Below, one piece after another: positions 22,152 to 45,197 of a stretch of DNA of 64,000 nt (its first letter is position 1; each line of letters opens with the position of its first letter). The position numbers and the translations under genes were made by a program. This DNA is from Escherichia phage EcS1, in the sequence record NC_055721.1; one strand, given 5' to 3'. The notes under the pieces are model-generated. The model saw only the letters and a program-made list of their open reading frames with translations. It was not told the DNA's origin and searched no databases.

Positions 22152-22154
22152 TAC

Positions 22155-22182
22155 AAAAAAGCCCCGACCATAAGGAAGGGGC
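22155..22182 (-). terminator. Minus-strand terminator after small Cys-rich ORF
   Basis: On minus strand GCCCC-loop-GGGGC followed by TTTTTTGT. Confidence 0.5.
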
Positions 22183-22212
22183 AAAACCAACAAAGTGGCT
22201 ATCAACACTAGA

Positions 22213-22377
22213 CTAAATTAAAAGTTGCGTTTCGTTCAATTGCTCTTGTGTGTCTTCAGTGACAGGCAATTCACACGCATAATTATAGCAAGGACCTGGA
22301 TGAACCAGACCTTTGTCTGATTGAACAACCAATGCCGAATCGATTGGTGTTTTACAGACGACACAAATCTCAGACAT
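22213..22377 (-). CDS. Small Cys-rich protein (54 aa, CVVC...CYNYAC)
   Basis: Hand-translated MSEICVVCKTPIDSALVVQSDKGLVHPGPCYNYACELPVTEDTQEQLNETQLLI; AAGGAG RBS 4 nt upstream; followed by minus-strand terminator hairpin. Confidence 0.45.
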   Translation of the reverse strand: MSEICVVCKTPIDSALVVQSDKGLVHPGPCYNYACELPVTEDTQEQLNETQLLI

Positions 22378-22409
22378 AATTGTCTCCTTGGTTGTCGTTA
22401 CATATCTAT

Positions 22410-22625
22410 TTATATTTGCTTTCTGGCTTTAGCTTTAAAGTCTCGCATATGCATGTCTATGCCCATTTGTGTTTCGTAGAAATACTCATCTATATACCCA
22501 GCAAACTTGCCTTTAATATAAAGAACATCTTCACCACACGGATGATCAGGTACAATACGGATATCTGAATCGGAAATTCCATGCTTTTTCTTTAAGAACT
22601 TTATCTCTTCTTCAAACTCTTCCAT
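22410..22625 (-). CDS. Hypothetical protein (uvsY.-1-like)
   Basis: 71 aa ORF abutting uvsY stop. Confidence 0.55.
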   Translation of the reverse strand: MEEFEEEIKFLKKKHGISDSDIRIVPDHPCGEDVLYIKGKFAGYIDEYFYETQMGIDMHMRDFKAKARKQI

Positions 22626-30757: not shown

Positions 30758-30786
30758 ATAGTACCACATCCTTGTGGTGTTGTAAA
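30758..30786 (-). promoter_or_regulatory. Sigma70-like early promoter (TTTACA-17-TACTAT) for ORF 30418..30729; -35 overlaps alt stop
   Basis: Hexamers and 17-nt spacer read on minus strand. Confidence 0.45.
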
Positions 30787-37247: not shown

Positions 37248-37276
37248 ATAATACCACACTCAATCAGCGTTGTAAA
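37248..37276 (-). promoter_or_regulatory. Sigma70-like early promoter (TTTACA-17-TATTAT) centred in a 13-bp perfect inverted repeat
   Basis: Hexamers on minus strand; IR arms 37233-37245 and 37256-37268. Confidence 0.45.
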
Positions 37277-38171: not shown

Positions 38172-38200
38172 TTTATTCTCCATTTGTTGATTGAGTGTAC

Positions 38201-38228
38201 ATCTTAACACAATCCTAGGAGAAGTAAA
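38201..38228 (-). promoter_or_regulatory. Sigma70-like early promoter (TTTACT-16-TAAGAT) sharing 15-bp -10 region with 37236-37250
   Basis: tgattgagtgtacat present at 37236-37250 and 38188-38202. Confidence 0.4.
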
Positions 38229-38232
38229 CACC

Positions 38233-38427
38233 TTATTTTACATGACTGAATTCTACATCAGACCAGATGCCGAAAGGCGGAAGATTAGGTTCTTCTTTAA
38301 AGGCTAACTTTTTGACATCAGTCCAAGGCCAACAGCAAACTTCGTGCTCGTATAACCAGCATGTTCCTTGCAAAGGACTCTCAGGATGCATTTCTATAAT
38401 TTTATAAACCAAAGTTTTCTTGAACAT
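38233..38427 (-). CDS. Hypothetical small protein (64 aa; start at MFKKTL)
   Basis: ORF; track N-terminal extension spans a terminator hairpin so internal start preferred. Confidence 0.45.
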   Translation of the reverse strand: MFKKTLVYKIIEMHPESPLQGTCWLYEHEVCCWPWTDVKKLAFKEEPNLPPFGIWSDVEFSHVK

Positions 38428-38439
38428 ATTCACCTCATA

Positions 38440-38470
38440 CAGATACAAAAATGGGAGACCGAAGTCTCCC
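38440..38470 (-). terminator. Minus-strand terminator (GGGAGAC-TTCG-GTCTCCC + ATTTTTGT) after small basic ORF
   Basis: Same 32-nt module as at 56268-56297. Confidence 0.75.
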
Positions 38471-38475
38471 ATAAC

Positions 38476-38655
38476 TTATGCTACAGCTCGCGGCTTTCCA
38501 AAACGAGAAGCATCGTCGCGTAACACGGCTCGTGCACGACGCATAATCTTCTCAACTGTCTGATTAATACGCTTGTTCGACCCACGCTTATATTTCGCGC
38601 GTTTAGAGGTACCAACTACTTCTTTAACTGCTTGTTTCTTAGCTTGCTTAGCCAT
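38476..38655 (-). CDS. Small highly basic protein (59 aa, 30.9-like position)
   Basis: Hand-translated MAKQAKKQAVKEVVGTSKRAKYKRGSNKRINQTVEKIMRRARAVLRDDASRFGKPRAVA; stop 5 nt before strong terminator hairpin. Confidence 0.4.
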   Translation of the reverse strand: MAKQAKKQAVKEVVGTSKRAKYKRGSNKRINQTVEKIMRRARAVLRDDASRFGKPRAVA

Positions 38656-38976
38656 TTTATTCTTCCAATCTTGGAGTAAAGTTAGCTCTATGACTTACGG
38701 TTTCCCTGCATAGAGCCGTTTTCTGTTTGGTCATTTCATGGCAGACCTACCAGAAGGTTTCGTTTATTTTACGTCTAGATAACCTACAACTACGACATCA
38801 TACTACTTCTATCTGTTGCACACCGTTAGCTGGCCATAGGCTGGGTCCGGGTCAGATTTCTCTGGGATAGAATATACATCAATGACTGTATAGGCCATGA
38901 GGTCACTCGGATTGTGAATCATTGTCCATCCGGTAACATGCCCTTGCCGTAATATGAACAAGTCCTCAAGGGGTAC

Positions 38977-39225
38977 TTATTTCAAAGTCACGATGAAGTG
39001 ACGGACTGCTTTACGAGCTGCAGAACACAATGGCTTAGCATATTTCAGTTCATCTTGAATAGCCAGTTCAGTAGCCAAAGCTTTCTGAGAAGGATTCAGA
39101 TGTTTGAAATATTCCAGGATGTCGAGAGCTTCAGCTTTAACATCAATGGAAGCACCATAGTTATCATGGCCTGCATTCCAGGATTTACGTTGGATGTCGA
39201 GAATAGATTTGATTAGTTCTTGCAT
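38977..39225 (-). CDS. rIII: rIII-like lysis-inhibition accessory protein (assigned by size and synteny only)
   Basis: 82 aa, same length as T4 rIII, immediately downstream of gene 31. Confidence 0.45.
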   Translation of the reverse strand: MQELIKSILDIQRKSWNAGHDNYGASIDVKAEALDILEYFKHLNPSQKALATELAIQDELKYAKPLCSAARKAVRHFIVTLK

Positions 39226-39338
39226 TATAGAGCCTCAATATGAGGTAAAAATTAGGAGACAATCATCGGTTAACTAAGGTCCGACTGCCATTATCTCCAC
39301 ATAGAAGTGATCCTGTTAATGGTCACCACTTCATAAAT

Positions 39339-39692
39339 TTATTTATACACTACGCCTAACGACTTATAATGCGCAGCTACAAATTTTTGTTTTACTTCTT
39401 TAGGTTGTTTAATACCTAAAGCAACAAGTGGATGAATCACGTTTTTAAACGTTGGGTTACTTGCAAGATAAGGAACCAAATCACCTACTTCAATGAAACC
39501 AGTTGGAACTTCATCGCCAATGGAATGAACTTCCATTACTTCTGGTAATTGACCTTGTGTTTCTTTGCCTAAAAAGATTCCAGATTCAGATGTTTTATCA
39601 TCACCTGCTTGGGACGGTTCAGAGACAAAAATAATGTGCTCACCTAGAGCTTTAATTGGGAGTTCCATTTTATTACCTGTTTGGTAGACCAT
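39339..39692 (-). CDS. 31: Co-chaperonin gp31 (GroES analogue)
   Basis: LPIKALGEHIIFVSEPSQAGDD..HSIGDEVPTGF.EVGDL..HPLVALGIKQPKEVKQKF..HYK matches recalled T4 gp31. Confidence 0.9.
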   Translation of the reverse strand: MVYQTGNKMELPIKALGEHIIFVSEPSQAGDDKTSESGIFLGKETQGQLPEVMEVHSIGDEVPTGFIEVGDLVPYLASNPTFKNVIHPLVALGIKQPKEVKQKFVAAHYKSLGVVYK

Positions 39693-39724
39693 GAGTAAAT
39701 AATATCACTCATGGTCTAAAGCAT

Positions 39725-40048
39725 TTAACCAACAAACTTAACCAGATGTTCCATCTTCATTCCATTAAAGGAAACCAGTTTGTCGATGCTAAAGCCACGC
39801 CATTGTTTGATTTCAGTATCAAATGCTGGAACCATATCTACAGCTTCTTTACGAGGCTTACTAGGATTCACATAGCTTTCATAGATTGCAGGGTCAACCA
39901 GTTTACCAATTACATCTTTATCACGAGAAGCTTTCATTACACGCATGGTGCCATCAGCTTTTTCAAAGACTACTTCAGAAGTACCCATTGCCAGTTTAGT
40001 TTTCAAGACTTCACGCAGAGCTACTTTTTGATCTTCAGTTAATTTCAT
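39725..40048 (-). CDS. Hypothetical protein (31.1-like)
   Basis: 107 aa ORF. Confidence 0.5.
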   Translation of the reverse strand: MKLTEDQKVALREVLKTKLAMGTSEVVFEKADGTMRVMKASRDKDVIGKLVDPAIYESYVNPSKPRKEAVDMVPAFDTEIKQWRGFSIDKLVSFNGMKMEHLVKFVG

Positions 40049-40600
40049 TTATTCGATTCCACAAAAGTTTTCAATTCGATTCCAGTCAAGAGACTTCAAA
40101 TTAGTACGAGAATATTCGATGACTTCAAGACCTGAATCACGTAAGATGTCATCCCAATTATCAGGAGAACGATCATATTTTTCAGCATAAACAACTTTCT
40201 TAATACCTGACTGAGCAATAGCTTTAGAACAATCAGGACAAGGAGAAGCTGTTACGTACATCGTGGCGCCATCAATAGACGAGCCATTACGAGCAGCAAA
40301 CAAAATAGCATTCAATTCAGCATGGATTTCATTACGAGCAGACCAAGAACTATGGGCTACTCGATGTTCTGCTTTAAGACCTACTCGATGATGGCGTTCA
40401 CCTGGAATAAGTTTACCTTTACCTAACCAACCTTGTTCTGCAGCATGGTCACAACAGTTTACACCACCAGATGGAGTGCCATTATAGCCAGTAGAAATGA
40501 TGCGACCATTCTTTTCAATGACCGCACCTACCTTCCAAGAACAACATTTAGATTCTTGAGAAATCAGATATGCAATCTGAAGATAAGTGCTAGATTTCAT
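40049..40600 (-). CDS. cd: dCMP deaminase
   Basis: 183 aa; zinc-binding HAELNAI and PCPDC motifs. Confidence 0.9.
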   Translation of the reverse strand: MKSSTYLQIAYLISQESKCCSWKVGAVIEKNGRIISTGYNGTPSGGVNCCDHAAEQGWLGKGKLIPGERHHRVGLKAEHRVAHSSWSARNEIHAELNAILFAARNGSSIDGATMYVTASPCPDCSKAIAQSGIKKVVYAEKYDRSPDNWDDILRDSGLEVIEYSRTNLKSLDWNRIENFCGIE

Positions 40601-44335: not shown

Positions 44336-44497
44336 AACTTAATTCCTTATACAAAGCTTCGCGAGCAGCCTTAAGTTCTTTGGCTGATTCATATGCACAT
44401 TTATCGTCGATTAATGACATTGCAACTTGTGTCTGACGTTGACCATGTAGTTTGGCTTTGAGTTCATAAGCTGCAAACAAATCTTTCAATTTATCAT

Positions 44498-44995: not shown

Positions 44996-45024
44996 AATAA
45001 TATCCTCAAATTTAATTATCCCAT

Positions 45025-45040
45025 AGAGCCCGAAGGCTCT
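45025..45040 (-). other. Intercistronic hairpin AGAGCC-CGAA-GGCTCT upstream of ORF 44498..44995
   Basis: Read directly. Confidence 0.55.
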
Positions 45041-45197
45041 AAGATTTTAAAATCAGTTTAATAGCTTTATATGCAAAGATTAATATCATACCAAATGCTA
45101 TTAAGCCAGTCATACCACTAGCACAACCAACGCTGCAACGCATGCAAGCAGAGCAACAACCAATCCTGCACAAAACAATGTAGCGCCTAAAGTCATT

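Follow-up and report, generated by a model that had tools for sequence, protein, structure and literature searches.

What occupies the long stretch that separates rIII from gene 30.9 in Escherichia phage EcS1? Positions 38656-38976 are the largest internal stretch free of open reading frames (ORFs) in the 64,000-nt window of record NC_055721.1 that was analysed, and a first-pass annotation, made from the letters alone, had proposed for it a small RNA gene, a decayed gene or homing-endonuclease gene remnant, or an origin or other cis element. Here, we report that this gap almost certainly holds a genuine structured RNA. Its core, element A (38800-38955, minus strand), is a self-contained structured RNA of 156 nt, delimited by a covariance-model match, and is a new, well-supported structured-RNA family in T-even phages that lies within a modular structured leader. 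The proposal of a small RNA or cis element holds in so far as the gap carries conserved RNA modules with covariation; the hairpin flagged at that stage is a minor feature, and the GC-rich part is a separate RNA.

Fold and covariation of element A

Read on the minus strand, element A is closed by stem P1 (38955-38949, AUAUUAC, with 38806-38800, GUAGUAU), which leads into a four-way junction of P1, P2, P3 and P4 with zero unpaired linker bases. P2 (38948-38946 with 38895-38893) is followed by the long hairpin P2a (38937-38925 with 38917-38902), P3 is a hairpin of UAUACA and UGUAUA (38892-38887 with 38878-38873), and P4 (38872-38866 with 38813-38807) encloses P5 (38864-38861 with 38856-38853, with a GAAA loop at 38860-38857) and P6 (38852-38848 with 38825-38820), so that a three-way junction, P4/P5/P6, opens from this arm. 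The P2a and P3 arms are joined by a kissing loop, which in the window copy is a 6-bp helix of CAAUGA (38924-38919, P2a loop) with UCAUUG (38885-38880, P3 loop). About 35 unpaired bases are near-invariant, including AAGNGCAU opposite CUCAAG in the P2 internal loop and GANCC...AGCUAA in the P6 loop, and P6 is connected back to P4 by an invariant GCAACA. The window copy, which ranks among the two most divergent members, still folds alone into the consensus architecture, which is returned by its unconstrained minimum free energy structure (-39.1 kcal/mol). Two further tertiary contacts were considered and not adopted. For a GAAA tetraloop receptor, the resemblance of the P2 internal loop (CCUCAAG/CAUG) to the 11-nt receptor motif is loose, and some copies depart from GNRA in the P5 loop; a second pseudoknot between AAG of the P2 internal loop and CUU of the P6 loop was dropped, as it breaks in 5 of 15 sequences.

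The evidence that carries this fold is covariation. From 15 copies, RNAalifold derived a closed fold with several helices and 45 pairs, and across 28 distinct copies 97.9% of the pair cells are canonical and 26 of the 45 pairs have changed on both sides, as against 25-42% canonical and 4-7 double-changed pairs in controls in which the partners were slid by 1-3 columns. Screening of the unpaired columns revealed the kissing helix, where the consensus P2a hexaloop CGAUGG can pair along its whole length with the P3 hexaloop CCAUCG. With this helix added, the set comprises 50 pairs, 98.1% canonical and 28 of them compensatory in the same copies (slid controls, 27-40% and 4-7 double changes), and the observed covariation values were matched by none of 500 shuffles. 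Three of the six kissing pairs covary, as C-G/U-A (17/9), G-C/A-U/U-A (24/2/1) and G-C/A-U (25/1). Compensatory changes across phages also affect five of the six pairs in P1 and eight of the 12 in P2a, while P4 shows a double compensatory change, the window reading UUCUAUC/GAUAGAA against a consensus of UCUUAUC/GAUAAGA. Element A thus has the compensatory pairing on one strand, beyond controls, that is expected of a structured non-coding RNA.

Which strand is selected can be read from the mismatches that are tolerated. In the paired columns of element A there are 62 G-U cells and a single A-C cell; therefore, the selected strand is the mRNA-sense (minus) strand. A DNA-level element such as a replication origin, one of the earlier candidates, is unlikely on this ground, since the strand-specific G-U pattern favours RNA over duplex DNA. 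We likewise give almost no credence to a decayed protein gene or homing-endonuclease remnant, the other form that such an explanation could take. For a spacer, the region is exceptional in its length and high GC content, and some GenBank records annotate short ORFs over element A (COW86c_228, UPWr_E2), both of which would suit a former gene. Against this, none of the six frames is open through element A in any of the 28 distinct copies, the frames shift between phages, and variable columns fall on the codon phases 27/25/25, with no 3-base periodicity. The conserved string GGACCCGGACCC illustrates the point, as its frame reads DPDP in EcS1 and GPGP in COW86c, and the ime09-type copy has in-frame stops. 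ORF fragments over element A have no match in Pfam or PHROG, and no recognisably interrupted frame shared by relatives emerged.

The other recommended searches were also carried out. A covariance-model search against Rfam 15 (4227 families) found no family at gathering threshold in the window region or in six relatives, and a permissive search (E up to 10) of 1.6 kb and 351 bp returned only chance matches (MIR159, a plant-virus pseudoknot, snR107 and the PhrS tail), none on the strand and span of element A. ARAGORN found zero tRNA or tmRNA genes in the whole window. The Rfam result bears on the possibility that element A is a self-cleaving ribozyme of a new class, which would cut a bicistronic RNA between rIII and 30.9, giving two halves with different fates whose 5′-OH and 2′,3′-cyclic-phosphate ends would be substrates of the phage polynucleotide kinase and RNA ligases. 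Small ribozymes are common in phage genomes, and the compact fold with its four-way junction, kissing loops and many invariant unpaired bases, the intercistronic position and the self-contained, flank-independent build of the module would all suit such an activity. However, no Rfam ribozyme family is matched, even at E up to 10, and no candidate cleavage site was identified; we consider a ribozyme quite unlikely.

Support for the fold is comparative rather than thermodynamic, because shuffled versions of the 187 nt at 38790-38976, folded as single sequences, reach energies just as good (z = -0.06 and +1.23 for the two strands). The constraint on element A is nonetheless strong: its copies share a mean pairwise identity of 0.84, whereas rIII averages 0.72 and 30.9 averages 0.68, and between phages Moon and PEi20 the corresponding values are 0.95, 0.71 and 0.66. 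These figures tell against a generic mRNA stability or processing barrier, in which stable structures would block exonucleases or RNase E scanning and thereby uncouple the decay of rIII and 30.9. Such a role would suit a spacer that is, as a whole, a chain of hairpins and pseudoknots, and RegB, RNase E and RNase G are known to influence T4 mRNA decay (PMC9409239). A roadblock needs helices only, however, and here some 35 unpaired bases and the loop-loop contact show stronger conservation than the adjacent proteins, which argues against a simple stability hairpin; together with the unremarkable folding energy of the wider stretch (z = -0.06) this makes the barrier very unlikely.

Distribution among phages

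In a BLAST search with the gap, its GC-rich half was matched, at about 69% identity, by some 400 phage records, in which the matching segment follows closely on rIII and is mostly unannotated. The covariance model gives a single match in the 64 kb window (38800-38955, 119.5 bits, E 2e-28) and one copy per positive locus, and the alignment with relatives, which had been asked for to establish conservation, places the core at the same locus in 401 phage records, so that chance is a poor account of the stretch. These hold element A in 402 places, with one copy in all but one record, and the copies inspected (about 30 sampled loci) all lie between rIII and 30.9 in the same orientation. Carriers include the window, COW86c, ime09-type Tequatrovirus, LZ9, VR26, phiC120, Moon, PEi20 and Klebsiella phages, as well as Cronus, PS2, Muldoon and fHe-Yen9-01. 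Outside T4-like genomes the element was not encountered: 5,426 E. coli genomes and 72,556 plasmids showed no similarity, and the core motif had no exact match among the genomes of 100,044 bacterial species. A metagenome scan yielded 14 T4-like contigs with element A and two chance matches in coding DNA, and of the 54 loci from a looser two-anchor viral scan only T4-like loci fit the model.

Element A is also precisely absent from many relatives, among them T4, T2, RB69, CC31, S16, Ursula, X20, LC53/CHI14, TG1 and phiR1-RT. A filter-off model search of CC31, S16, Ursula, phiR1-RT, X20, T4, LC53 and TG1 gave no match, and in T4 the point that corresponds to its site reads GAATGT/GAA/TGATGACGG. 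Presence and absence are paired in close relatives (SA21RB and T4, fHe-Yen9-01 and phiR1-RT, the window and both LC53 and TG1), and overall occupancy is about 40%, with 401 records for element A and 1003 for gp30.9. Because close relatives lack it, element A is non-essential and accessory.

Copies that are 93-99% identical occur across phages of Citrobacter, Klebsiella, Enterobacter, Escherichia, Shigella, Yersinia and Edwardsiella. Could element A, then, be a selfish or hitch-hiking sequence, either a small cassette, mobile or prone to recombination, whose structure would promote its own propagation, or a remnant of module shuffling from which the phage gains nothing? Along with this cross-genus identity, the precise presence or absence in close relatives, the short similar sequences at the junctions and an alternative 53-nt cassette at the same site in some phages point in that direction. 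On the other side, the 402 places in 401 records, the constant locus and orientation of the inspected copies and the lack of any copy elsewhere do not resemble mobility, and no transposase, homing endonuclease or target-site duplication is associated with it. That element A is single-copy and locus-fixed, with no mobility gene, argues against a mobile element. Moreover, the divergent copies (the window, fHe-Yen9-01, Cronus, COW86c and PS2) retain the fold via compensatory changes, which argues for long-term selection on the RNA and not only recent transfer, and we regard a selfish origin as highly improbable.

Public annotation of the spacer is inconsistent. In SA21RB, a ‘rho-independent terminator’ is placed on the P2a arm (L005:732-770), where there is no U-tract, hypothetical ORFs are called over element A in COW86c (COW86c_228; L004:652-786) and UPWr_E2 (L006:551-863), and in T2, where element A is missing, the spacer itself is annotated with a short ORF (L108:636-842). 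These terminator and short-ORF calls are probably annotation artefacts.

Gene context and transcription

The source phage is T4-like (Straboviridae, Tevenvirinae), its nearest sequenced relatives being Winklervirus phages at about 82% nucleotide identity. The genes around the gap all lie on the minus strand in the order kept from T4, with cd (40049-40600), a 31.1-like gene (39725-40048), gene 31 (39339-39692) and rIII (38977-39225) preceding the gap (38656-38976, read on the minus strand) and the gene 30.9 homologue (38476-38655) following it. As the 5′ neighbour on the transcript, rIII is an 82-aa ORF that matches PHROG 1457, ‘lysis inhibition; accessory protein’ (E 5e-41). The 3′ neighbour encodes a very basic protein of 59 aa that is the homologue of T4 gp30.9 (89% identity over 44 aa). 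It belongs to PHROG 1427, a family of unknown function, and has no Pfam domain and no relative in the PDB; gp30.9 occurs in 1003 phage records. The protein is rich in arginine and lysine (KRAKYKRGSNKRINQ...RRARAVLR), and it may be an RNA-binding protein, since the pseudoknot described below as module B always precedes its gene.

Much of the initial description of the gap was accurate. Between the rIII-like gene and the basic ORF there is no ORF of at least 60 aa on either strand; the stretch is comparatively GC-rich, at 43.6% (46.2% in the core) against 38.2% for the whole window; and the 8-bp-stem hairpin is exact, GCTCTATG (38685-38692) pairing with CATAGAGC (38709-38716). The remark that spacers elsewhere in the window are under about 100 bp was overstated, as ORF-free gaps of 228, 188, 162, 116 and 113 bp are present. 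Further ORF-free stretches at the 60-aa threshold lie at 22152-22379 (228 bp), 45010-45197 (188) and 44336-44497 (162), the first of which has 41% GC and adjoins a late-promoter box at 22407-22414. The rIII-30.9 spacer of T4 itself is 244 bp and unannotated.

Signals for transcription flank the gap. Upstream of rIII, on the minus strand, are a late-promoter box, TATAAATA (39340-39347), and a sigma70-like site (39319-39290), both of them consensus matches only. After 30.9 stands an intrinsic terminator (38451-38472, minus strand) with a 9-bp stem, GGGAGAC-UUCG-GUCUCCC, a UUCG loop and a U-tract, which is the only terminator-like site in 38200-39800. Within 38656-38976 there is no sigma70-like, T4 early, MotA-type or late promoter and no terminator. 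Because the promoters precede rIII, the only terminator follows 30.9 and neither occurs inside the gap, rIII, the spacer and 30.9 would be transcribed as one bicistronic RNA. A free-standing small-RNA gene was rejected, as the gap lacks its own promoter and intrinsic terminator; a processed RNA species is possible. Taken with the early-promoter matches at 37248-37276 and 30758-30786 (minus strand), the terminator at 38451-38472 resembles terminator/promoter punctuation of the PeSL type.

Other modules of the spacer

When the spacers of a dozen phages are read on the gene-sense strand, they appear as a mosaic of short modules whose order varies by phage, and the position of element A relative to the other modules varies as well. 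None of the gap modules is repeated elsewhere in the window. In EcS1, module M1 (38956-38976, minus strand) carries the motif GUACCCCUUGAGGACUUG directly after the rIII stop codon, where it is single-copy in the window; in relatives, this motif recurs at other spacer positions, and it forms only a 3-bp G-C hairpin, so that its significance is weak.

Directly after element A lies module B (38755-38796, minus strand), an H-type pseudoknot with a short bulged stem (38796-38790 with 38778-38773), an 11-nt loop and an A-rich linker, in which the loop AGGUU (38785-38781) pairs with the tail AACCU (38759-38755). Loop-tail complementarity in 18 phages sums to 98, compared with 70 +/- 4 (maximum 85) in 1000 shuffles, and the helix takes the forms AGGUU/AACCU, GUAGU/ACUAC, UGUGAG/CUCACA and GAUGG/CCAUC, with GGUGG/CCACC seen by eye in phiR1-RT. 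No relative examined lacks module B, which was seen in T4, T2, S16, CC31 and phiR1-RT among others.

Further downstream, module M4 (38729-38747, minus strand) is a hairpin read by eye as GGUC-UGCCAUGAAAU-GACC, with homologous hairpins of different stems, also read by eye, in T4 (UCAC/GUGA) and TG1 (CGC/GCG). Module M5 (38685-38719, minus strand) is the hairpin flagged at the outset, 38716-38709 with 38692-38685, and a pseudoknot of ACGG (38719-38716) with the loop CCGU (38700-38697) is possible; M5 is common to few relatives only (LC53/CHI14 and TG1, and expanded in CC31), with few variants. Finally, a weak hairpin, UCCA-AGAU-UGGA (38661-38675, minus strand), covers the ribosome-binding site of 30.9, its 3′ arm being the Shine-Dalgarno tract GGAAGA (38666-38661). 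Equivalent hairpins in most leaders (UCC/GGA, CCUC/GAGG, UUUUC/GAGAA), at -2 to -6 kcal/mol, are suggestive only.

Modules foreign to the window were also seen. An unrelated hairpin cassette of about 53 nt, GTACTATCACGCGTCAGAAAAAGGTTATCTGTCTAAGCCGTGGTTGGTA, stands at the element A site, about 100-155 nt downstream of the rIII stop, in some Mosigvirus-type genomes and T4-like contigs of IMG/VR (L033, L034, L035 and L041), and because of this the site looks like a slot for exchangeable RNA modules. A core, CGTCAGCAAAAGGTTAGCTGTCTAAG, like that of this cassette is nested in the M5-type hairpin of CC31 (L065:790-830). The T4 spacer starts with an apparently structured module (L003:3690-3785, minus strand) that is absent from the window, in which CCGUCGAACUGUC pairs with GACAGUUUUACGG around an inner hairpin, AAUGAUU-UGCG-AAUCAUU, and which also occurs in SA21RB, VR26, phiC120, L032 and S16. 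In phiC120, GAAUUGUC/GACAAUUU replaces GAACUGUC/GACAGUUU, a change that looks compensatory.

The company that element A keeps raises the possibility of a cis-regulatory leader of 30.9, in which element A, with or without module B, would serve as an operator or riboswitch-like sensor of translation or stability; in one variant, by analogy with T4 gp32, RegA and gp43, control would be autogenous, with basic gp30.9 perhaps binding the leader. In the sampled loci element A is always upstream of 30.9 on the same strand, with no promoter between them, module B and the hairpin over the Shine-Dalgarno tract accompany 30.9 in every relative examined, and gp30.9 is small and rich in arginine and lysine. 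Element A itself has the features of a riboswitch aptamer, being conserved, supported by covariation and endowed with invariant junction nucleotides. However, it is missing from about 60% of the carriers of 30.9 (401 against 1003 records), and T4 and SA21RB differ in element A despite near-identical 30.9 genes and leaders. Nor was an expression platform coupled to P1 found: the sequence after P1 differs between phages, with module B following in some and M1 and a long hairpin in others, and element A is separated from the 30.9 start by anything between about 45 and 290 nt. The lack of a conserved expression platform argues against a classical riboswitch, and a leader function for element A strikes us as unlikely, although the objections from platform and absence are weaker for module B.

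A proposed role for element A

The reading that we favour, to which we would give slightly less than an even chance, is that element A is an autonomous recognition domain, possibly catalytic, that acts via its tertiary fold. That it is autonomous is argued by its own closing stem P1, its precise presence or absence and its changing order among the modules. Under this proposal, the spacer would be built of independently folding RNA modules, intercistronic in the transcript that runs from rIII to 30.9. Within element A, the P2a and P3 arms would be locked by the 6-bp loop-loop helix, with P4 opening into the three-way junction, and the resulting shape would bind a partner that is conserved across Enterobacterales hosts or across phages, for which a protein, another RNA, the ribosome, RNA polymerase or a small ligand are putative candidates. 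A four-way junction, a covarying kissing loop and ~35 invariant unpaired bases are hallmarks of specific binding or catalysis, and the properties of element A fit an autonomous domain that recognises a conserved partner or catalyses a reaction; action in trans after processing and action in cis are both compatible with them.

Several considerations weigh against such a recognition domain. The identity across host genera, together with the presence/absence polymorphism, could reflect recent horizontal spread rather than purifying selection. The constant location by 30.9 and the weak hairpin over its Shine-Dalgarno tract fit a purely cis role equally well. Any specific partner of element A is putative, and its co-transcription with rIII and 30.9 is deduced from promoter and terminator consensus only. 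In addition, the P5 tetraloop is not strictly GNRA, as UAAA and UAAU occur, and the tertiary contact expected of it is thus not conserved.

A bolder version of the autonomous domain is possible, if rather doubtful: element A may be the founding member of a new class of functional RNAs with complex folds, confined to T-even-type phages, and an optional accessory in the rIII-30.9 transcript that would either bind a ligand or macromolecule (e.g., titrating a conserved host factor or an immune signal as a decoy or sponge) or act as a new self-cleaving ribozyme. Its function is directly testable by a swap, because it is naturally present or absent in near-identical phages (ime09-type and T4, fHe-Yen9-01 and phiR1-RT). 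Taken together, the modules make the rIII-30.9 spacer a structured leader that is both conserved and modular, and its pseudoknot, which T4 also has, gives a handle on 30.9.

Comparison with known systems

T-even phages are the most intensively studied bacterial viruses, yet this locus is blank or mis-annotated in hundreds of records, and element A may have escaped notice because T4, T2 and RB69 are, by chance, without it. In the searchable literature, its core sequence strings were not found, and papers on rIII, PeSLs and viral structured RNAs appear without it. The viral structured-RNA catalogue of 2023 highlights the T4-type leaders of gp20 and gp32 and not the rIII-30.9 locus (Fremin, Bhatt and Kyrpides, 2023; PMC10690425), and element A may stand unnamed in that catalogue.

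Among systems within T4, the translational operators (the gene 32 5′ pseudoknot and the RegA and gp43 operators) are comparable to module B, which is likewise an H-type pseudoknot in a leader and is conserved together with the gene across the subfamily, and in the spacer, too, a small basic protein is encoded just downstream as a candidate binder. Unlike these operators, module B lies 60-150 nt from the start codon, and element A is optional. In architecture only, module B also resembles preQ1-I-type pseudoknots, with a short stem closed by an 11-nt loop and an A-rich linker leading to a 3′ tail that pairs back to this loop; it differs in a linker of 15-17 nt as opposed to about 6, and has no Rfam match and no queuosine context.

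The PeSL/PmSL cassettes, reportedly described for PeSL in T4-type phages by Arbiol et al. in 2010, are the nearest parallel in genome dynamics and resemble the spacer modules in being small, non-coding and located in plastic regions with insertions, deletions and shuffling. A PeSL pairs a terminator stem-loop with an early promoter, TTTACW-N17-TAYWAT, and recurs several times in a genome (Comeau et al., 2014; PMC4122927). Assignment of the gap to this class was rejected, as the promoter pattern occurs only at 30758-30786 and 37248-37276, the gap has no promoter, terminator-like site or U-tract, and its modules are single-copy and locus-specific.

In architecture, element A comes closest to natural junction aptamers with kissing loops. 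Like the purine, lysine and cobalamin aptamers, it has a closing P1, a multi-helix junction, parallel arms held by a loop-loop helix and conserved junction nucleotides; unlike them, it combines a four-way with an extra three-way junction, matches none of them in sequence or structure and has no conserved expression platform. Finally, orphan structured-RNA motifs of phages and bacteria have reportedly been collected by comparative genomics by Weinberg et al. in 2010 and 2017, and element A is defined in the same way, as a conserved intergenic block with a covarying fold in a fixed neighbourhood.

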